Virus record (IMG/VR): IMGVR_UViG_3300025066_000037
Span: 1-53,104 of that record
Source of the DNA: a virus
Lineage: Duplodnaviria; Caudoviricetes
DNA: 53,104 nt
Strand: one strand, 5' to 3'
The notes beneath the pieces were generated by a model. That model saw only the letters and a program-made list of their open reading frames with translations, did no database searches and was not told the origin of the DNA. Below are positions 135-47,285 of this stretch, in pieces (position 1 is the stretch's first letter; each line of letters opens with the position of its first letter). Both the position numbers and the translations under genes were made by a program.

Positions 135-1277
135 ACAAATCTAACCATCTCTTCCTCCGCTATTGCTACTGTAGATGCAGGTACAGATATCGTTCTTGAT
201 GCTGATGGTGGTGATATCTTCTTCAAGGATGATGGCACTACGTTTGGTTCGATGACCAACACAAGTGGTGATCTAATCATCAAGTCTGGTACGACTACTG
301 CAATGACGATGAGCGGTGCCGATGTAACCTTCGCAGGAACCGTGACAATCGGCAGTGCTGGTATCTCTGAGGCAGAGTTAGAAATTTTAGATGGTGCTAC
401 TGTAACTACCACTGAACTGAACATCATGGATGGCGATACCTCTGCCACTTCAACGACTGTTGTTGATGCAGATAGGGTTGTATTCAACGATGACGGCACC
501 ATGAAACAGGTAGCTGTTACTGATCTTGCTGCATACTTAGATGATGAAATCACTGCGATGCCTAATCTTGTAACTACAGGTGCATTGGATAGTGGCTCTA
601 TTTCATCTGGTTTTGGTAGTATTGATAATGGTACTTCCAACATCACCTCCGGTGGGTTGCTTTCAATTGACGTTGATGCAGATGCAGATGATCGTACAGG
701 AGATAGTGCTACTGGTCGCCTAACAATCGGTGCCAGTGAAGATTTGAACCTGTATCATGGTGGAACTAACTCTTATATCGTAAATGATACTGGTGATCTA
801 GTTGTAGATACTGCCGGTGATATTGTTCTTGATGCAGATGGAGGAGATGTTTTCTTCGGTGATGACGGTGTTACCTTCGGTTCTGCTACGAATACCAGTG
901 GTAACTTGATTATTAAATCCGGTACGACTACTGCACTGACCTTCAGCGGTGCTAACGTAACTGCTGCTGGTACGATTGGTTCTGGTGCCATCACCTCTAC
1001 TGGTACTGTAACTGCTACTGGTTTCACAATCGGATCAGCAGAAATTACTGAAACAGAATTAGAAATTCTTGACGGTGCTAATGTAACCACCAGTGAGCTA
1101 AACTTATTGGATGGTTCAGCTAAATCTACATCATCCATTACTATTGCGGATACCGATGCATTCATTGTGATTGATGGTTCAACTACAAAACAAATTCCTG
1201 CATCTGATATTAGTACGTATGCTGGTGGTGGTATTACAGAAGGTACTGCCACGGCATTGGCGATTGCTTTGGGATAA
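1..1277 (+). CDS. Tail fibre protein, 3' part (continues from 51848 across the contig junction)
   Basis: The frame starting at nt 3 is open and in frame with ORF 252..1277 and with the ORF from 51848. The joined gene is 2400 nt (~799 aa). It is G/T/S/D-rich with internal duplications (DIVLDADGGD; ELEILDGA.VTT.ELN) and ends in ALAIALG. Confidence 0.85.
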   Translation, partial: EGDDTDLTVTSGADINLTATSDINVPTDVGITFGDDGEKIEGDGTNLTISSSAIATVDAGTDIVLDADGGDIFFKDDGTTFGSMTNTSGDLIIKSGTTTAMTMSGADVTFAGTVTIGSAGISEAELEILDGATVTTTELNIMDGDTSATSTTVVDADRVVFNDDGTMKQVAVTDLAAYLDDEITAMPNLVTTGALDSGSISSGFGSIDNGTSNITSGGLLSIDVDADADDRTGDSATGRLTIGASEDLNLYHGGTNSYIVNDTGDLVVDTAGDIVLDADGGDVFFGDDGVTFGSATNTSGNLIIKSGTTTALTFSGANVTAAGTIGSGAITSTGTVTATGFTIGSAEITETELEILDGANVTTSELNLLDGSAKSTSSITIADTDAFIVIDGSTTKQIPASDISTYAGGGITEGTATALAIALG

Positions 1278-25860: not shown

Positions 25861-26265
25861 CTATATTACTTCATCTTCCGTGTCTGACTCCTCTGCGTCC
25901 AGTTCTTCCATTTCGTACTCAACAAGATTAACAACCATCAGTTGATTAAGACCAAGACTGACCCCAGATTTTCCTTTGTAAGTCCAATCATACGGTTTGG
26001 CCGAAATCTTAATAGTTGATCCGTTACCGATAACAGTATCGTCCCACAGACGCTTCGAAGCATCCATAACTCTTGGAGGACGTACCGCCTTCGCAGTAAC
26101 GTAGCTGCCGCGCTCCTCATCATTCTTAATAGGAACGCCAGAACTTTCTAGCTGCTTCACTACCTCAGAAGACAAATTACATACGTCTACCTGATACTTG
26201 TTGGAAAGATTGTTGGGCTGTCCTTCAAGAACACGCGCCCACATTGAAGTTCCTCGTATAATCAT
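25861..26265 (-). CDS. Single-stranded DNA-binding protein (T7 gp2.5-like)
   Basis: IGNGS...GVSLGLNQLMVVNLVEY plus an acidic C-terminal tail; adjacent to the polymerase. Confidence 0.8.
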   Translation of the reverse strand: MIIRGTSMWARVLEGQPNNLSNKYQVDVCNLSSEVVKQLESSGVPIKNDEERGSYVTAKAVRPPRVMDASKRLWDDTVIGNGSTIKISAKPYDWTYKGKSGVSLGLNQLMVVNLVEYEMEELDAEESDTEDEVI

Positions 26266-28030: not shown

Positions 28031-28207
28031 CTAATTGCTATCTCCAGATACGCCCGTGTTCCTAAGAATAACCACGGCCTCCTTGAAAGAATACCCAAAG
28101 GAAAGAAGACTGTCAAGACAATCATCATAAGATATCTTGCCTTTTTCGAATTGAGTTATTGAGTGTTCTATATTTATAACATTCTCAGAAAGTTTCTTCA
28201 TGTTCAT
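28031..28207 (-). CDS. Microprotein (58 aa), paralog of 21292..21465; not in ORF track
   Basis: MNMKKLSENVINIEHSITQFEKGKISYDDCLDSLLSFGYSFKEAVVILRNTGVSGDSN; SD AGGAG upstream. Confidence 0.7.
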   Translation of the reverse strand: MNMKKLSENVINIEHSITQFEKGKISYDDCLDSLLSFGYSFKEAVVILRNTGVSGDSN

Positions 28208-28370
28208 TTATATTCTCTCCTAATACTAAGTTAATAACTTCTTTACTTTCTCCGTTTACTGATACATAAACATGTTTTTGTGTTTCTCCATGTTTGTTAA
28301 TCCATTCATCTAGTGGCATAATAAGAGCATCTTCCTCCATCTCCATCAGCCATCCTTTTACTTTACCCAT
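28185..28370 (-). CDS. Small conserved phage protein (MGKVKGWLMEMEEDA)
   Basis: 61 aa with SD GGGAG. Confidence 0.7.
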   Translation of the reverse strand: MGKVKGWLMEMEEDALIMPLDEWINKHGETQKHVYVSVNGESKEVINLVLGENINEHEETF

Positions 28371-28386
28371 CGTGATCTCCCTTCAT

Positions 28387-28612
28387 TAGAGTAGTGAGAC
28401 AAGAGTATTTTTAGGCACGGCGACTATCGCCTGTGTCTGGTGTCGGGCCACCACTCTTGTCTCTCCCGAATTGAAAGTACAACTACCATCCTGCCTATCG
28501 ATAGTCAAGAGCAAAGATTGTAATTGGTTCAGTACTAAACCAATTACGCCCTTCTCTGCCATTTGTGCAAGGCATTGCAATTACACCCTATAAGCTGTAC
28601 TTTCAAACTCTA
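28387..28612 (-). ncRNA. Candidate structured non-coding RNA (~225 nt, two multibranch domains)
   Basis: Nested inverted repeats at 28387-92/28607-12, 28396-406/28453-63, 28471-84/28593-606 and 28520-29/28538-47, plus inner hairpins. G.U wobbles mostly favour the - strand. Confidence 0.7.
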
Positions 28613-28614
28613 GC

Positions 28615-28944
28615 TTATATATCATCATAACTCTTTTTATCTCCCATGTCATCGCAGTATATCCCCAACTCCTTAACCATCTTCTTGTCGTATTCATCGG
28701 CTATCTCTTTAGCCTCGTCATAATAACCACCGGTATCTATAATATGCCATACTTGTTTTTTATAGTCCCAGCCATACACATTGTAACCTACGCTGTGTCT
28801 ATCTTCGCATGGTATCATAAGTTCTCGCCATTCTCCACTAGGCGGACCCGTATCAGGTACTATGTTAGTTAAATATACATCATTATCATATACCGGCATG
28901 ACAAAAGAGAACTTCGTTACTTTACGAGTTATGTATCTAGGCAT
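28615..28944 (-). CDS. Hypothetical protein
   Basis: 109 aa ORF with SD in a co-directional cluster. Confidence 0.65.
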   Translation of the reverse strand: MPRYITRKVTKFSFVMPVYDNDVYLTNIVPDTGPPSGEWRELMIPCEDRHSVGYNVYGWDYKKQVWHIIDTGGYYDEAKEIADEYDKKMVKELGIYCDDMGDKKSYDDI

Positions 28945-28950
28945 CTTTCC

Positions 28951-29148
28951 CTATCCTTTTTCATATGTTAGTTGTATGTTCCACATGTCCTCTACATCCA
29001 CAGCAACCCATGTATGTACGTCCACATAGTCTTTGTGTTTTACTTTGTTGTACTCTTCAATAGTATCAAAATAAAGTAAAGGCGTATGAAGCCTTTTCCA
29101 TGTCACTGTGTTACCGTCGTGCTTACGGATACTTTTATCTATTTTCAT
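28951..29148 (-). CDS. Hypothetical protein
   Basis: 65 aa ORF with SD AAGGA. Confidence 0.6.
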   Translation of the reverse strand: MKIDKSIRKHDGNTVTWKRLHTPLLYFDTIEEYNKVKHKDYVDVHTWVAVDVEDMWNIQLTYEKG

Positions 29149-29296
29149 TTACTATCGTAGTCCTTTTGTTTATTTCTTCCTGTAGTTTAACTATTTTTTT
29201 GTGAGCATTATTTAATTGCTCTTGAAGGTCATACACATTTCTTTCTAAGATTTCTTTTGTTGTCATGATATTTAAATTATCGTGCGCGTTATTCAT
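29135..29296 (-). CDS. Small coiled-coil protein; not in ORF track
   Basis: MNNAHDNLNIMTTKEILERNVYDLQEQLNNAHKKIVKLQEEINKRTTIVNENR; SD GGAGG. Confidence 0.65.
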   Translation of the reverse strand: MNNAHDNLNIMTTKEILERNVYDLQEQLNNAHKKIVKLQEEINKRTTIVNENR

Positions 29297-29311
29297 CTGT
29301 TCCTCCATGTA

Positions 29312-29476: not shown

Positions 29477-29621
29477 AGTATGCCTCTAAATCCTCGTCTA
29501 TGTCATAATTCTCGTCGTATTTGCTCTTTGCCCTTTTGATCCGCTGCTTATATTTAGGTGTTCGCAAGTCTTTTGCAATGGGGTTGTAGCGCACCCGTTG
29601 CTTCTTACTTTGCTCTTTCAT
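29448..29621 (-). CDS. Small basic/acidic protein with ArfA-like N-terminal motif; not in ORF track
   Basis: MKEQSKKQRVRYNPIAKDLRTPKYKQRIKRAKSKYDENYDIDEDLEAYYEDAKKPDS; SD AAGGA; first gene of the leftward operon. Confidence 0.6.
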   Translation of the reverse strand: MKEQSKKQRVRYNPIAKDLRTPKYKQRIKRAKSKYDENYDIDEDLEAYYEDAKKPDS

Positions 29622-29702
29622 TTTGTTAGCCTGTCCTTTTTGTTAGCATGTTGCTTTTGTTAGCACGGCCCTTTTTGTTAGTCAATCCTTTTTTTTGTTA
29701 GC
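29621..29702. repeat. Five direct repeats TTTTGTTAG(C) (iteron/operator-like)
   Basis: GTTAG cores at 29625, 29642, 29659, 29677 and 29697 (spacing 17, 17, 18, 20). Confidence 0.85.
29657..29685 (-). promoter_or_regulatory. Leftward sigma70-like promoter overlapped by the repeats
   Basis: The - strand reads TTGACT-17 nt-TAACAA with TG at the extended -10 position. Confidence 0.5.
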
Positions 29703-29748: not shown

Positions 29749-29776
29749 ATTATAATGGCTGTTTTGGTGATGTCAA
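29749..29776 (-). promoter_or_regulatory. Leftward consensus sigma70 promoter for the replication arm
   Basis: The - strand reads TTGACA-16 nt-TATAAT. Confidence 0.8.
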
Positions 29777-29885: not shown

Positions 29886-30080
29886 ATGCATAACATGACT
29901 AATTGGAGCGGAAATACGCCAACACTTGAAATGAAGATTCATATAGTACAGTTAGGCCACCCTAATTGGGATTATCAATTCTCCGTCCCTCCCGTACATA
30001 CTACAATGTGGAATACATTAAACTGGATTAAATGGATAGACAAAAATGGAAGGTGGATTAAAAAAAGGGTAGCCACATAA
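29886..30080 (+). CDS. Small Trp-rich hypothetical early protein
   Basis: SD AGGA (start probably 29895); TAATG coupling to the next gene. Confidence 0.6.
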   Translation: MHNMTNWSGNTPTLEMKIHIVQLGHPNWDYQFSVPPVHTTMWNTLNWIKWIDKNGRWIKKRVAT

Positions 30081-30802
30081 TGACGTTAAATTGGAGCGGA
30101 AATATATTGTCATATAATAACGCTAAAACAGTGAAGGGGGAAAAGAGCGGCATCCTTACTTCTATCTGGTACGGTGCACCAAATACAACTAGTGGTTATG
30201 ATGCATGCCCTAACAGTTCGCCGGGTTGTCGTGATGTATGTCTATTCTATAGTGGGTTCGGTGCTATGAAGCGTACACAAAATGCGCGCATCCGTAAAAC
30301 AAAGTTATTCTTTGAGAATAGGCGCGACTTTCATAATTTGTTAGCTGGTGACATATCATCGTTCGTATTGTTTAGCAAGAAAATGAATATGCAACCGTGC
30401 TTCAGATTAGATGGGACAACCGATCTAGGATTAGGTAAACGATACGCTAAAAAATACACGGATTTGCAGTTCTATGATTACACAAAATCATTCAACCGCA
30501 TCATGGGTAATTTTGTTAGCAATTGGCATTTAACATATTCGTTATCAGAAAATACAACAAAGGAACAATTGGAAATTTTGTTAGCCTCTACTCATAATAT
30601 TGCTATACCGTTCAGGACCGCGCCACCTCCCGGTTCCGTGCTTTGGGGGCGGCGGGTCGTGAGCGGCGACGAGGATGATTTGAGATTTACAGATCCCGAT
30701 AGCTGTATTGTATCGCTATTGGCTAAAGGACCGGCAAAGCGGCGCGGCGGCGCGTTCGTCCTTGATGATATAAAAGCGGCGGCGGCGCGTTTTAGTGCTT
30801 GA
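30080..30802 (+). CDS. GP88-like phage protein (Cys-triad, radical-SAM-like fold suspected)
   Basis: NAKTVKG, CPNSSPGCRDVCL (Cx6Cx3C), ARIRKTKLF, RLDGTTD, QFYDYTK, HLTYS and GDEDDLRFTD. Confidence 0.75.
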   Translation: MTLNWSGNILSYNNAKTVKGEKSGILTSIWYGAPNTTSGYDACPNSSPGCRDVCLFYSGFGAMKRTQNARIRKTKLFFENRRDFHNLLAGDISSFVLFSKKMNMQPCFRLDGTTDLGLGKRYAKKYTDLQFYDYTKSFNRIMGNFVSNWHLTYSLSENTTKEQLEILLASTHNIAIPFRTAPPPGSVLWGRRVVSGDEDDLRFTDPDSCIVSLLAKGPAKRRGGAFVLDDIKAAAARFSA

Positions 30803-30862
30803 CCGCTTTGATGCGTCCTGTATGCTGTGAAGCCTTGTAACGAGTGAACCTTTGAAAACAAC

Positions 30863-32005
30863 ATGGAAGTGAAAGAGATTATGGTAGACGCAGTTGAGAC
30901 GATGGCGTGGACCGGCGAAGTGCCGTGGCACGGTTTAGGCGTAGAGATTGGCGCGGATGATCCAGCATTGCGGGACATGCCAGCATTCATGGAAAAGGCG
31001 GGGCTTGATTGGGAAGTCCAGAAGGTATCTTTGATGTATGGCGATGACCACCCGTTTACGCCGGGACAGTATATCGAAAATGAGTTTCATTTAATCCGCT
31101 CCAACGATGGTGCACAGCTTTCGGTGCATCCGGTCACAGACGATGGGTACAACGTACGCGACAATGCATCCGCCGTTGATGTATTGCAGCCGTTCATTGA
31201 TAGTGGCGAATTTACGCTGGAGACGGCGGGGTCGCTGTTCAGTGGTCGTAAAGTATGGTTCCTGTGCCGTCTGGGCACCGGCTTCGACGTAGGGCAGGAT
31301 GATCAAGTGGCGAACTTTTTAACGTATACCATCGATCATTCTGGCGTGAATGCGAATACAGCATTCTACACGCCGATCCGTGTGGTCTGCGCTAATACGT
31401 TGCGCTTGGCAACATCGAGCGCGGGTGACATGGTGCGAGATAATCACCGGGCGCTATTCGATGCCGATCTGATGCGCGTTGCGCTGGACTTGGTCCGTAT
31501 GCAGTCAGTAGATTACGAGACGCTGTGCAAGGCAATGATGGCGCGGCGGCTGGATGGTGAAGCAGTGGTGGATTATTTCCGTACTGTATACAAACAGCAG
31601 CCAAAGTCCGACGATGCTGGGCGATTGATTGATAGCGCGACTGTTCGCCGTGCTATTGCGCTTTATCACGGTTCTGATCCACGCAACGAAAAGCAGGAAC
31701 CGGTGCGTGAACAACAACGGCGCAATCAGGAAGTAATCGACGCAATGCGGCGGGGTGCGGAGGATGAAGCAGGCCGCTTATTGAACCAGATCGATGCGCC
31801 GTCTAATGATAACGCCGTCAATCCCGGCTGGGAAAAGGCAGAGGGTACATTGTGGGGTGCGTACAATGTCGTGACGTATATTGCAGATCACGCGCCAATG
31901 CGCTCCTACGCTTCTGATGATCACCGGCTGGACCGTGCATTGTATTCCGGCCAGAATGACATCAAAAGTCGGGCCACCATCGCCGCCGCTGAACTTGTGG
32001 CGTAG
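30863..32005 (+). CDS. DUF932 / TIGR03299-like protein
   Basis: VETMAW.GEVPWHGLG, AGLDWEV, ETAGSLFSGRKVW, TPIRVVCANTL and GTLWGAYNVVT. Confidence 0.88.
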   Translation: MEVKEIMVDAVETMAWTGEVPWHGLGVEIGADDPALRDMPAFMEKAGLDWEVQKVSLMYGDDHPFTPGQYIENEFHLIRSNDGAQLSVHPVTDDGYNVRDNASAVDVLQPFIDSGEFTLETAGSLFSGRKVWFLCRLGTGFDVGQDDQVANFLTYTIDHSGVNANTAFYTPIRVVCANTLRLATSSAGDMVRDNHRALFDADLMRVALDLVRMQSVDYETLCKAMMARRLDGEAVVDYFRTVYKQQPKSDDAGRLIDSATVRRAIALYHGSDPRNEKQEPVREQQRRNQEVIDAMRRGAEDEAGRLLNQIDAPSNDNAVNPGWEKAEGTLWGAYNVVTYIADHAPMRSYASDDHRLDRALYSGQNDIKSRATIAAAELVA

Positions 32006-32008
32006 GCA

Positions 32009-32086
32009 ATGGAGGGCTTTGTATTGTTTGTGTATCGGCTGTGCATCATTGCAGTCGCGGTTATCGTACTATCCTACATATTGTAA
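32009..32086 (+). CDS. Possible 25 aa transmembrane peptide
   Basis: MEGFVLFVYRLCIIAVAVIVLSYIL begins 3 nt after the DUF932 stop; weak SD. Confidence 0.35.
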   Translation: MEGFVLFVYRLCIIAVAVIVLSYIL

Positions 32087-32104
32087 ACCAAACGAAAGAG
32101 AGAG

Positions 32105-32359
32105 ATGAACATGAAGATGAACGAAACAGACGTGAACGACCCCGCCGTTGCGTATTCGGAACCGGAGCAAATCCGCTTACCGGATGGCAACCGGATCTGG
32201 TTCTTCAATCAGTATCGATATAACAGGATGGGCGATAAATATGTCCATACATCGTATTGGTACAAACATGAAGGACATTGCAAACGATGGCACCGGGAAC
32301 GGGAGCGGAAGGAACTTTATAGCGAGATATTCGAAAGGTTCGCGCTATTGGCTGGATAG
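32105..32359 (+). CDS. Hypothetical early protein
   Basis: 84 aa, aromatic-rich, with an A/C-rich leader containing GAGAG. Confidence 0.6.
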   Translation: MNMKMNETDVNDPAVAYSEPEQIRLPDGNRIWFFNQYRYNRMGDKYVHTSYWYKHEGHCKRWHRERERKELYSEIFERFALLAG

Positions 32360-32374
32360 TCCAGCGGGGATGAT

Positions 32375-32420
32375 GGCGGCGGCGATGTATTTGGTATTGC
32401 ATCGTCGCCGCTTCCTGTTT
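32375..32420 (+). terminator. Stem-loop (terminator or processing site) inside early block
   Basis: GGCGGCGGCGATGTA / TGCATCGTCGCCGCT form a 15 bp stem with G.U pairs, followed by TCCTGTTT. Confidence 0.5.
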
Positions 32421-32461
32421 AGGGTGGGTACATCTGAAACGCTGAAAAGAGGAAAATCGCT

Positions 32462-32671
32462 ATGAACAGAGACATTATGAACGCAATCTTTCCAGAGGAA
32501 ATGAAACTGATCATGTCTGGCCGGTGTCCGGTTTGCGCCAAGGCACCATTGCGCGATAAGACGGGCGAACTGGTATTCCGCGATGAACTTAGCCGGGAAG
32601 AATACAATATCAGCAGAATGTGCGAACCGTGCCAAGATGATGTATTCGGCAACCCGGCGGCGGATGATTGA
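32462..32671 (+). CDS. Small zinc-finger protein
   Basis: CPVC...FRDELSREEYNISRMCEPCQDDVF; SD GAGGA. Confidence 0.75.
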   Translation: MNRDIMNAIFPEEMKLIMSGRCPVCAKAPLRDKTGELVFRDELSREEYNISRMCEPCQDDVFGNPAADD

Positions 32672-32730
32672 CAGAATGTCCATATCCATCGATAATGGGC
32701 GAACCACAAACAAACAAAAGGAAACTTGAT

Positions 32731-33012
32731 ATGCTACAGGAAGATGCAACACACAATATTGACACACTAAGTGACTTCATGGCACCTCACAAAGTAGACG
32801 AACCAGCACAAGTTACATGCTTTCGGGAGTGGATTGGCAAGGCGCAACGTGCCATCGATGCCAATGACTACAAACTAGCAAGGACGTTTGTGCGCTTGGC
32901 GCATTCTTCTGCGGAGGCATTCCACGTCAAGGACAATGGCGTCATCGAGGTGCGTACATCAAAGTGGATCGATACCGCATACAGCCAGACAGACCGGCTG
33001 ATCACCTCGTAG
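32731..33012 (+). CDS. Hypothetical early protein
   Basis: Likely start MLQEDA with SD AAGGA (the track gives 32668). Confidence 0.6.
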   Translation: MLQEDATHNIDTLSDFMAPHKVDEPAQVTCFREWIGKAQRAIDANDYKLARTFVRLAHSSAEAFHVKDNGVIEVRTSKWIDTAYSQTDRLITS

Positions 33013-33025
33013 TCTAACCGACAAC

Positions 33026-33070
33026 ATAGCGCCAGCATCTGGGATAGTCCGGTGCTGGCGTTATTTTGTT
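33026..33070 (+). terminator. Rho-independent terminator ending the early block
   Basis: ATAGCGCCAGCATC...GGTGCTGGCGTTAT stem followed by TTTGTT. Confidence 0.8.
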
Positions 33071-33272
33071 GGACAGGTTCGCACGTGCGTGCGCGGGTGC
33101 ACGTGACATGATAAGAGGATACAGGGGGGCCCCCTTATGAGCGGATTTAGAGGGGAGATTATGGGATCAGTATTTGGCAGATTATAAGGGCCGCCGGACT
33201 TTCCAAAATCTATATTATCGGGTTACTTTTGAACCAAGGTGATGCATATTTGCAACATAAAAAAGATATATA

Positions 33273-33285
33273 AATCAATAGGTTA
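33273..33285 (+). promoter_or_regulatory. IHF consensus site
   Basis: AATCAATAGGTTA matches WATCAANNNNTTR and is preceded by an A-tract. Confidence 0.6.
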
Positions 33286-33415
33286 CGGGGCATGGTCCAC
33301 CCGCCCCCCCGTATATGAATATATGCAATACCGCGAGAAAATTTGTATTTTTAAACCGTATGCATGTTATGTGCACACATACAAAAAAAAAAAAAATGAA
33401 CGAACCATCATCTGG

Positions 33416-33490
33416 ATTCGCTCACCCCTATTCAGATTCGCTCATGCTATATATTCATGAGTATTCGCTTATTCTTCCAAGTTCGCTCAT
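33416..33490. repeat. Four TTCGCT(C/T)A boxes
   Basis: At 33417, 33437, 33464 and 33482, directly downstream of the leftward promoter. Confidence 0.7.
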
Positions 33491-33533
33491 TCTATATAGA
33501 GGGGGTATGCACCCCCCGTACCTATAAGTACTT

Positions 33534-33562
33534 ATTATAGGGGTAAATTCACGATTTGTCAA
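33534..33562 (-). promoter_or_regulatory. Leftward consensus sigma70 promoter with no obvious downstream CDS
   Basis: The - strand reads TTGACA-17 nt-TATAAT with an upstream A-tract. Confidence 0.8.
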
Positions 33563-33777
33563 GTCTTTTTTTATTTTTTTTTTAATTGCTCTGTTTTTGA
33601 AATATAACCCGTTGAAATTATTAACAGATTCGACACGATGTAACTTTTACGCCAATAGTGTAATTTTATTGTCTTCCTACCTAACATGCACAAAACTTAC
33701 ATCGTGCTTATTTACCCAATGTTTTCAAGTACTTAATTTTCTATTTTTATTTTTTTCTATTTTTTTAAAAAAAAGAC

Positions 33778-33806
33778 TTGACAAATCCGTATTTTGACCC
33801 TATAAT
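33778..33806 (+). promoter_or_regulatory. Rightward consensus sigma70 promoter for the packaging/morphogenesis arm
   Basis: TTGACA-17 nt-TATAAT with an upstream A-tract. Confidence 0.85.
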
Positions 33807-33970
33807 AGATAAGTAAGGGAAGGATTAAGCGAATACTTGTCGTGTCACGGTAAGCGGAATAATATCCACTTCCTCATCATACTCACAGATATAAACAGAG
33901 AAGTTACGGATATTCACCCGCACCTTATCTTCCTTTTTCATACATACTTTGTAAATTTGAAAGCAATGCT

Positions 33971-46328: not shown

Positions 46329-47285
46329 ATGGCATTTGGAGTAGCAGCCGGATATAGTAACCTGCCTAATGGTAAGTTTCTACCGGCAATCTATAGCCAA
46401 AAAGTACTCAAATTCTTCCGTCGTGCCTCTGTAGCAGAAGCTATTACTAATACAGATTATGCGGGGGAAATTGAAAATTTTGGCGACACGGTGAAGATTA
46501 TTAAAGAACCATCAATCACGGTATCCTCGTATACCCGTGGTTCTGTAGTCAACACTGAAGACCTGTCCGACACCGAGATTACTCTTGCTGTCGATCAGGG
46601 TAATTACTTTGCTTTTAAAGTTGATGATGTCGAAGAGCGGCAGAGCCATGTTAATTGGGAATCTCTGTCCACTTCTAGCGGCGCATACAGCTTGAAGAAG
46701 GCATATGATTACAATATTCTGAAGAATATCAGCGACAATGCTGCTACTGACACTACCAATCTTGGTGCTGCCAGTTCAGCGATTTCGTGCAACACCGGCA
46801 ACGAGTGCGCTAACTATCTTAGCACTTTTGCCCGTAAGTTGGACGAAGGTGACGTTCCTGAAGAGAACCGTTGGATTGTGGCCCCGCCTCAGTTCTACGA
46901 AATTCTGCGTCAGGCGGATGCCAAGCTGATGGATTCCAGTGTTACCGGCGAAGATAAGTCTGCCCTTATGAATGGTGCTGTCACCTCTCGTAAGATTCAC
47001 GGCTTTACTTTGTATCAGACTAACGCGATTGCTGTTAGCTCTGCTGGTACTGCTGCGTCCCACACTTTCGGTCCTTCGGCCACCAGCGGCGAGACTATCG
47101 TTCTTGGCGGTCACATGAGCGCGGTTTGCACTGCTTCCGCAATCGCAAAGACCGAAGTGATCCGTGACCCCGATAGCTTTGCAGACATTGTTCGTGGTCT
47201 GCATGTTTTCGGACGTAAAGTGCTACGCTCTTCGGGCACCGGCTTTGTCGGCGTCTACAAGGGTGTACCTGATCTTAACACATAA
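46329..47285 (+). CDS. Major capsid protein
   Basis: GYSNLPNGKFLPAIYSQKVLKFFRRASVAEAITNTDYAGEIENFGDTVKIIKEP...RDPDSFADIVRGLHVFGRKVLR; SD AAGGAG. Confidence 0.92.
   Translation: MAFGVAAGYSNLPNGKFLPAIYSQKVLKFFRRASVAEAITNTDYAGEIENFGDTVKIIKEPSITVSSYTRGSVVNTEDLSDTEITLAVDQGNYFAFKVDDVEERQSHVNWESLSTSSGAYSLKKAYDYNILKNISDNAATDTTNLGAASSAISCNTGNECANYLSTFARKLDEGDVPEENRWIVAPPQFYEILRQADAKLMDSSVTGEDKSALMNGAVTSRKIHGFTLYQTNAIAVSSAGTAASHTFGPSATSGETIVLGGHMSAVCTASAIAKTEVIRDPDSFADIVRGLHVFGRKVLRSSGTGFVGVYKGVPDLNT

Follow-up and report, generated by a model that had tools for sequence, protein, structure and literature searches.

What is the 229-nt stretch that fills the gap between two small genes in the early region of an uncultured, podovirus-like marine phage: a gene, a regulatory site, an insertion or an RNA? 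The window, by which we mean the whole stretch of DNA analysed (IMG/VR record IMGVR_UViG_3300025066_000037), is a complete (99%) virus record of 53,104 bases. We found that the 229-nt element is a self-folding unit with exact boundaries, present once per record, dispensable in close relatives and exchanged between diverged phages; its structure is striking and real, its population pattern unusual and its distribution narrow. With somewhat less than even confidence, we lean towards the view that it is an accessory, horizontally exchanged non-coding cassette acting as a structured RNA read from the minus strand. As an earlier note made from the letters alone had described, it fills the gap between two genes, the stop codon of the first lying at 28615-28617 and the ATG of the next at 28370. 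The element, its flanking genes and its parts are:

28386..28614, minus strand: the element, a 229-nt insertion/deletion unit defined by empty-site junctions and by the fold, its ends pairing together
28615..28944, minus strand: upstream gene, 109 aa, no family, stop at 28615-28617
28185..28370, minus strand: downstream gene, 61 aa, no family, ATG at 28370
28612-28607 / 28392-28387, minus strand: closing stem UAGAGU/ACUCUA, the 3' strand ACUCUA being 28387..28392
28471..28606, minus strand: domain 1, a 14-bp stem enclosing three arms
28606-28593 / 28484-28471, minus strand: the 14-bp stem UUGAAAGUACAGCU/AGUUGUACUUUCAA, from the minimum free energy (MFE) fold
28520..28547, minus strand: 12-bp hairpin GUAAUUGGUUUA-GUAC-UGAACCAAUUAC, from the MFE fold, extended by GGCAGAGA/UCUUUGCU
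28396..28463, minus strand: domain 2, an 11-bp stem closing a three-way junction
28463-28453 / 28406-28396, minus strand: the 11-bp stem GAGACAAGAGU/ACUCUUGUCUC, enclosing both domain 2 arms
within 28396..28463, minus strand: the domain 2 arms GGUG-GCCCGA-CACC and GGCGA-UAG-UCGCC

The MFE of 28386-28614 on the minus strand was -86.4 kcal/mol, compared with a mean of -58.4 for shuffled sequences (z -6.33), none of the 200 shuffles being as good, and the element ranked first among 2116 windows of 230 nt taken from both strands of the whole genome with correction for G+C; the folding was thus far beyond chance. The earlier note had judged such a density of nested stems unexpected for coding DNA. 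A 241-nt version of the element gave the same energy (-86.4 kcal/mol, z -5.25). The MFE structure of the 229-nt unit has 84 pairs in 13 helices, leaves just 2 nt unpaired at the 5' end and 1 nt at the 3' end, and is laid out as a 6-bp closing stem, domain 1, a 4-nt linker and domain 2. Its helices are nested, in that the ends pair with each other and the 14-bp and 11-bp stems enclose 108 and 46 nt, respectively, a hierarchy that would seem to suit a single-stranded molecule better than protein-binding sites in duplex DNA. All of the stems listed in the earlier note were present where it had placed them. Two smaller proposals are not borne out in the form given: the UGCAA-UGCC-UUGCA hairpin, put forward there as part of a possible pseudoknot, is unused in the RNA MFE fold and appears only in a DNA-parameter fold, and the CUAU-CG-AUAG dyad is unused in the MFE fold. 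In a terminator scan, the 12-bp hairpin GUAAUUGGUUUA-GUAC-UGAACCAAUUAC was weakly terminator-like.

Comparison with related phages showed that the insert coincides with this self-folding unit. Among 29 related IMG/VR loci, fetched starting from polA, the element was present in L001 and in L003, where it is cut by the contig end, and copies in L032 and L033 were found by pattern scans. L004 lacks the element despite a 91% identical polA, its 109-aa stop codon abutting the next ribosome-binding site. Contigs from two DNA runs skip the element as well: one joins 28385 to 28615, omitting exactly 229 nt, with three letters (TAA) that fit either side, and another joins 28370 to 28615 with a variant ribosome-site stretch between. 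The empty junction of L035 and L061 reads ...ACATAA, followed directly by TGAAGGGAG... Eleven IMG/VR loci have a relative of the 109-aa gene, and after this gene the element is present in one, cut by a contig end in one and missing from nine; it therefore occupies the site in 1 of 10 informative loci, and the empty state is common and probably the older. The element is dispensable in close relatives. With covariance model R1, one copy was found in each of the window, L033, L032 and L001, and all sites lie in the same early region. The repeat TAGAGT/ACTCTA sits 2 nt and 1 nt inside the 229-nt unit and reaches 7-8 bp in allele B by using flank bases. TAA is found on both sides of the insert, but it is also the stop codon, so that this 3-nt repeat can arise by chance. 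Three DNA runs gave no variant rows at 28321-28663 and 40 rows in the flanks, a gap that we do not count as selection, since it rests on contigs and the assembled alleles differ at seven sites.

Two other loci show further rearrangement of the region. L035 (2524 nt) has a filled copy at 2201-2433, 100% like the window and preceded by the tail of the 109-aa gene; ~900 nt downstream of it, the 109-aa gene occurs again (91.6% identical), this time with the site empty. The contig may have arisen by unequal crossover, or it may be an assembly chimera whose parts meet within domain 2, which they share. L002, which is 98% identical to the window, carries at its positions 141-466 a 326-nt insert between the 61-aa gene and a 58-aa gene (window 28222-28230), which resembles a small gene and is another case of cassette gain or loss in the region.

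The genes around the element are not constant. Three upstream contexts were found, namely the 109-aa gene, a 106-aa gene (L032, L037 and L038) and a 303-aa DUF932 gene (L033), and three downstream contexts, namely the 61-aa gene, an 83-aa gene and a 237-nt stretch before a 57-aa gene (L033 and L035). Within the 237-nt stretch a strong promoter, TTGACA-18-TATAGT, parts the element from the gene that follows, and in this context the 3' strand of the closing stem, ACUCUA, is gone. The orientation is always sense relative to the flanking genes, and the ribosome-binding site lies outside the fold. The three upstream and three downstream contexts, the intervening promoter of L033 and the relatives that lack the element weaken the proposal, also made in the earlier note, of a cis-regulator of the polA operon. 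One short piece of flank travels with the element:

28615..28645, minus strand: tail of the 109-aa gene (AGTTATGATGATATATAA plus upstream bases)

This tail precedes the element even beside unrelated genes, over ~20 nt in L032, L037 and L038 and over ~30 nt in L033, and in L038 a 25-nt direct repeat of it flanks the inserted 106-aa gene; the moves therefore look like recombination at short junction homologies rather than clean transposition. In L032 and L037 the element is 96.5-96.9% identical to that of the window, compared with 66-77% for the other matched segments. Two alleles were distinguished, with seven substitution sites, all in domain 1 or at the 5' edge and four of them clustered in the 12-bp hairpin, and with two indels, in the unpaired linker and in an A-run. 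Domain 2 shows no substitution in 16 of 16 aligned rows, some copies having one extra A in its A-run. Directly downstream of TTGACA-18-TATAGT, at 726-811 of L033 (minus strand) and also at 1984-2070 of L035, lies an 80-nt near-perfect palindrome, ...CTCCTATAGGACTTCT...AGAAGTCCTATAG..., which gave only miRNA-like noise in Rfam and may be an operator or a leader hairpin.

The element matches no family in the collections searched. Rfam includes families of riboswitches, self-cleaving ribozymes, 6S RNA, RNase P, SRP, Y RNA, HEARO, GOLLD/ROOL and group I/II introns. Rfam 15 gave no match at the gathering threshold over the whole window, and at E values up to 10 (queries of 601 and 271 nt) only MIR844 (16.8 bits, compared with a threshold of 70), sR24 and snoR114, which are noise; for the L033 copy, the sole matches were miRNA-like noise, none of it within the element. 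ARAGORN found no tRNA or tmRNA in the window or in the loci holding the element, in agreement with the earlier note, which had recognised it as neither of these, nor as 6S RNA, a hammerhead or a cobalamin riboswitch. An intron was considered and rejected: none of the four possible 3' boundaries has a G, the element follows a stop codon, and there is no group I/II match. No match was found by blastn in 50,697 phage records. Five pattern scans of IMG/VR, with loops fixed and stems free, stems fixed and loops free, the closing stem only, or two exact pieces, returned only the same four contigs, one of the five patterns fitting only copies with the extra A. One metagenome pattern scan gave 13 stretches, all 96-100% identical, and two exact-pattern scans of 185,579 prokaryote genomes gave no copy. 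Distant relatives may exist, because all scans required exact pattern matches. No further copy came up with covariance model R1, whether in 36 sources (315 kb), in the 11 loci that have the 109-aa gene or in L005-L029, and the element is absent from all other polA relatives, L004-L029. In total, 16 distinct records including the window carry the element at 96-100% identity, many of them cut inside it by the contig end.

Among the gaps upstream of polA in 17 relatives, none of those in close relatives was folded to such an extreme, the best being in the distant L029. A tRNA-like element occurs at 1136-1242 (plus strand) of L005, in a 245-nt gap between ORFs (open reading frames) 747-1022 and 1267-1524, and is not a homologue. 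L005, whose polA is 74% identical, has there a 7-bp acceptor stem, GAAGGGG/CCCCUUC, and a canonical GGUUCGAUUCC T-arm with ~90 nt between; ARAGORN did not report it, and its best Rfam score was 21.6 bits for tRNA-Sec (gathering threshold 47, E 0.066).

The setting of the element is the replication module of the phage. Structural and packaging genes are on the plus strand, and the minus strand carries an early/replication block running from ~29,750 down to 18,542, with small ORFs, polA and genes for a gp2.5-like single-stranded-DNA-binding protein (SSB), a Cas4-like exonuclease, primase/helicase, MazG and ribonucleotide reductase:

35478-37094, plus strand: terminase
39550-41598, plus strand: portal
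46329-47285, plus strand: major head protein
28018-26291, minus strand: polA
25861-26265, minus strand: gene for the gp2.5-like SSB
29776..29749, minus strand: perfect promoter TTGACA-16-TATAAT, from a sequence scan

The element lies 370 nt upstream of polA within this T7-type module and in sense orientation in the operon leading to it, as had been proposed, and the ribosome-binding site of the 61-aa gene, GGGAG, is 5 nt beyond its closing stem. The nearest cultured polA genes are those of Pelagibacter phages HTVC104P/103P, at 42% amino-acid identity; in the pelagiphage HTVC104P the gene order differs and there is no comparable gap. The scan with Pfam and PHROGs, which took in neighbours and large proteins amounting to 49 translated ORFs (46 from the window and three from L032/L033), revealed neither a reverse transcriptase, a transposase or an integrase nor a phage RNA polymerase or a partner nuclease. 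A parent transposase was likewise not found among these 49 ORFs, the host genome not being part of the scan.

Some other features of the window deserve mention. The leader between the early promoter and the first early gene (ATG 29621), at 29621-29702 on the minus strand, contains five copies of (G/A)CTAACAAAA, 17-20 nt apart, of which four are exact and one has a mismatch; two further exact copies lie at 30511-30520 and 30576-30585, and the window has 13 matches with at most one mismatch, compared with 6.3 expected. The minus-strand early block has its second strongest fold at 25925-26240 (-77 kcal/mol per 230 nt, z -2.7 after GC correction), in the coding sequence of the gp2.5-like SSB. On the plus strand at 30000-33000, G+C is raised, being 0.49 over 30-32 kb and as high as 0.58 in some 230-nt windows, compared with 0.38 at 28-30 kb; several strongly folded windows occur at 31851-32580, around and after the DUF932 gene at 30863-32005, and few long ORFs are found at 32000-34000.

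Could the element code for a protein? Two ORFs overlap it:

28386..28580, minus strand: 64-aa ORF with a TTG start, spurious, with a stop in other copies and no Pfam family
28498..28575, minus strand: 26-codon ORF with an ATG start, MPCTNGREGR[N/D]WFSTEP[I/L]TIFALDYR, inside domain 1

The longer ORF, which the earlier note had called spurious, ends after 19 codons in five of nine rows (TAA in the second allele), linker indels in other copies also shift its frame, and it gave no match in Pfam; we therefore agree with that assessment. The 26-codon ORF is open in all nine rows, and every indel falls outside it. Its only substitution cluster, of 4 nt, causes one synonymous and two conservative changes (N to D and I to L), and the same cluster breaks six of the 12 pairs of the long hairpin. 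A frame conserved while the stems break, which the earlier note had named as evidence against its RNA, is thus not seen for the 64-aa ORF, given the stops, and is seen in part for the 26-codon ORF, where two alleles were compared. A ribosome-site-like box, AGGGUG, pairs with the ORF's own AUG in the MFE fold. The peptide has a longest hydrophobic run of just six residues and had no relatives by tblastn in 50,697 phage records (best E = 3). A truncated element, lacking its initial 80 nt (5' end to a point within the long hairpin), occurs at 38-236 of L041; here the gene tail runs in frame into the 26-codon ORF's last 12 codons, which yields MMIHKTEPLTIFALDYR.

If the element acts as a structured RNA, host RNA polymerase would transcribe it within the early/replication operon; the perfect TTGACA-16-TATAAT promoter fits transcription of the block by this enzyme. 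The RNA would fold autonomously into two domains with its 5' and 3' ends paired, which would keep the upstream stop codon beside the downstream ribosome-binding site, as in insert-free phages. Its function would reside in the RNA itself and not in the control of one neighbouring gene: the RNA would probably be freed from the polycistronic transcript where the closing helices stack over ~20 bp and would then act on a host or phage factor. Transcription, processing and action in trans are steps that we infer. In favour of a structured RNA we also counted the tRNA-like gene of L005, which likewise occupies an intergenic gap in the early region. A more far-reaching proposal, which we think unlikely, is that the element represents a new class of self-contained mobile RNA gene, traded among marine phages, cut from the early transcript and trans-acting, for example as a catalytic RNA or as a decoy aimed at an RNA-binding or defence factor of the host.

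The case for the minus strand is mixed. RNA folding favours it by 12.7 kcal/mol (-86.4, compared with -73.7 on the plus strand); the G.U pairs number 10 of 84 and are mostly in two weaker helices, domain 2 being almost free of them. In addition, the 14-bp stem carries two clean A-to-G polymorphisms, by which A-U and U-A become G.U and U.G on the minus strand but would become C.A on the plus strand; this may be a weak hint that the minus strand is the one read. The strand claim of the earlier note is therefore supported by the G.U-rich helices and the two polymorphisms, but not by the long perfect stems, which are strand-neutral because the energies with DNA parameters are equal on both strands (-40.7 and -40.9 kcal/mol, z -5.2 and -6.7).

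This equality is one of several points that weigh against an RNA. The single RNA run that matches the window does so, as contigs, only at 28986-29136 and 29251-29300, outside the element, and gave no sign of its expression. There is no convincing promoter of the element's own in its sequence. The best candidate is:

28652..28624, minus strand: promoter-like ATGACA-17-TATGAT, 10 of 12 positions matching, in the tail of the 109-aa gene

It would place an RNA start at the base of the closing stem, yet it equals codons of the 109-aa gene, and the promoter-like matches in the region (9, compared with 7.7 expected), like the antisense promoter-like match, are at chance level. Nor does a terminator follow, there being no G+C-rich stem with a U-run after domain 2. 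None of 74 pairs changed on both sides, shuffle controls equalling what was observed, and comparative support for any helix is therefore nil; there is no covariation because all copies are near-identical, and for the same reason alone 98.8% of alignment cells are paired. A few pairs, at least two of them in the 14-bp stem, vary on one side and remain paired as G.U. The functional RNA of the earlier note, whether trans-acting, a ribozyme or a regulator, accordingly stays a candidate with these near-identical records. In allele B the 12-bp hairpin is shortened to 6 bp, and the divergence between alleles (seven substitutions in 229 nt, ~3%) is not below that of the close flanks (96-99% identity), so that we take the identity between distant phages to reflect recent exchange, without regarding purifying selection as proven. 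A young palindromic insertion at the DNA level would likewise be expected to have near-perfect stems with few mismatches, and the longest antisense match in the phage genome, 12 nt (E 0.57), is at chance level.

Four other explanations have to be weighed against a structured RNA. The element may be a generic cis-acting module of the mRNA, that is, an intercistronic or 3'-end block to exonucleases, a site for a double-strand-specific RNase or a structured 5' leader, which tunes the flanking genes. It always directly follows a stop codon, stands 5-8 nt before a ribosome-binding site in two of the three downstream contexts, insulates its neighbours by its paired ends and has no terminator of its own, and the conserved block extends from the -10-like TATGAT to the ribosome site; however, the 13 helices in 229 nt far exceed the needs of a stabiliser hairpin, the flanking genes change between contexts, and in L033 and L035 the promoter TTGACA-18-TATAGT separates the element from the next real gene. 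The promoter-like tail, moreover, is made of 109-aa codons, exists in degenerate form in L004 without the element, and belongs to a set of matches no more numerous than chance (9 vs 7.7). On balance we regard a tuning module as improbable. We also doubt that the element is a selfish or neutral insertion resembling a MITE (a miniature transposable element with inverted repeats), whose fold would be a by-product of inverted repeats without benefit to the phage, even though several features speak for it: the 229-nt boundary is exact with TAA on both sides, the ends give an inverted repeat of 6-8 bp (TAGAGT/ACTCTA), the upstream-gene site is filled in just 1 of 10 informative IMG/VR loci, L033 has a different site, and many contigs end within the element. 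Bacterial MITEs (PMC2229807) are likewise small, end in TA, have terminal inverted repeats (TIRs) of 4-24 bp and give highly paired transcripts. Such an insertion would not readily account for a single copy in the window, L033, L032 and L001, for the lack of a transposase among the 49 scanned ORFs or for the two prokaryote-genome pattern scans that came back empty; the inverted repeat is not terminal if TA/TAA is the target duplication, copies elsewhere carry 20-30 nt of the old upstream gene, as in recombination, and the fold is multi-branched and not one long hairpin.

The remaining two are less probable still. A DNA-level or single-stranded-DNA element, serving as a priming or replication-initiation signal or as a recombination anchor in the replication module, would explain the strong DNA-parameter folds on both strands (z -5.2 and -6.7), the position 370 nt upstream of polA among genes for primase/helicase, SSB and exonuclease, and the crossovers in or beside the element that join different flanks; we nevertheless consider it very unlikely, since the element is dispensable in close relatives and absent from the other polA relatives, L004-L029, and the two stem polymorphisms pair only as G.U or G.T on the minus strand. 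Finally, the 26-codon ORF at 28575-28498 could be a tiny protein gene whose translation is controlled by the structure, as in type I toxin mRNAs. The frame open in nine of nine rows, the lack of indels within it, and the 4-nt cluster that costs one synonymous and two conservative changes yet breaks six of 12 hairpin pairs all point that way, but the two alleles amount to one comparison, the ribosome-site-like box is weak, and a 26-codon ORF in 229 nt is unremarkable by chance. Type I toxins are hydrophobic, whereas this peptide is not; tblastn revealed no relatives among 50,697 phage records (best E = 3), and domain 2 and the closing stems, ~90 nt in all, would be left unexplained. A functional peptide is accordingly hard to credit.

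The early regions of lytic phages hold functions for host takeover and counter-defence, almost all known ones being small proteins. If the element is indeed a 229-nt RNA gained, lost and exchanged like early genes, the accessory pool would include RNAs, and a compact new fold would become available for study; as a mobile RNA gene, it would parallel, in RNA form, the small protein 'morons' found in the early regions of phages. If it is a selfish insertion instead, it would be a rare MITE-like element in lytic phage genomes, with no evident transposase, and would provide a concrete crossover point for the shuffling of modules. The filled and empty forms share the same waters, which offers a natural experiment on the cost and benefit of the element.

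How does the element compare with known systems? A riboswitch or the leader of a single gene would keep a constant downstream gene or pathway and would draw the ribosome site or a terminator into an alternative pairing, and here three downstream contexts were found, with the ribosome site outside the fold. Type I toxin mRNAs combine an ORF for a small hydrophobic peptide, paired ends that conceal the ribosome site and an antisense RNA; the element has the 26-codon ORF and paired ends, the peptide having only a 6-residue hydrophobic run and the antisense promoter-like match being at chance level. Between the genes of T7, RNase III is directed to processing sites that each consist of one irregular hairpin of ~60 nt in a fixed place. 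Like them, the element is structured and lies between cistrons of a phage early transcript, and its predicted closing helices span about two helical turns; unlike them, it is four times larger, optional and mobile.

Other parallels come from the literature. The structured-RNA candidates from IMG/VR (PMC10690425) come from the same data source and are, like the element, phage intergenic structured RNAs without an Rfam family; they measure 29-151 nt, and a covarying pair and non-identical sequences were required, so that the element as a whole would fail that screen, because of its 229 nt and lack of covariation. Some of these candidates may overlap a sub-part of it. The bacterial MITEs Correia/NEMIS, ERIC/IRU and RUP (PMC2229807) resemble the element in being small and non-coding, with short inverted repeats near the ends, TA-rich ends and a highly paired transcript, in lying between genes within operons, and in their presence or absence with exact boundaries. 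The element differs from them in having one copy and not many per genome, no transposase source and a two-domain branched fold, in that its copies at new sites carry pieces of the old flank, and in being found in phages only. The PeSL (promoter-early stem-loop) cassettes of T4-type phages (PMC2839356) have a strong sigma-70 promoter and a terminator stem-loop and are many per genome, recurring through the plastic region, whereas the element is single, with 13 helices, a promoter-like match of only 10 of 12 positions and no terminator stem. PeSLs nevertheless share its setting, a plastic early region of small non-essential genes, and in both cases short conserved junctions, or the element itself, serve as the crossover points at which neighbouring genes are shuffled.

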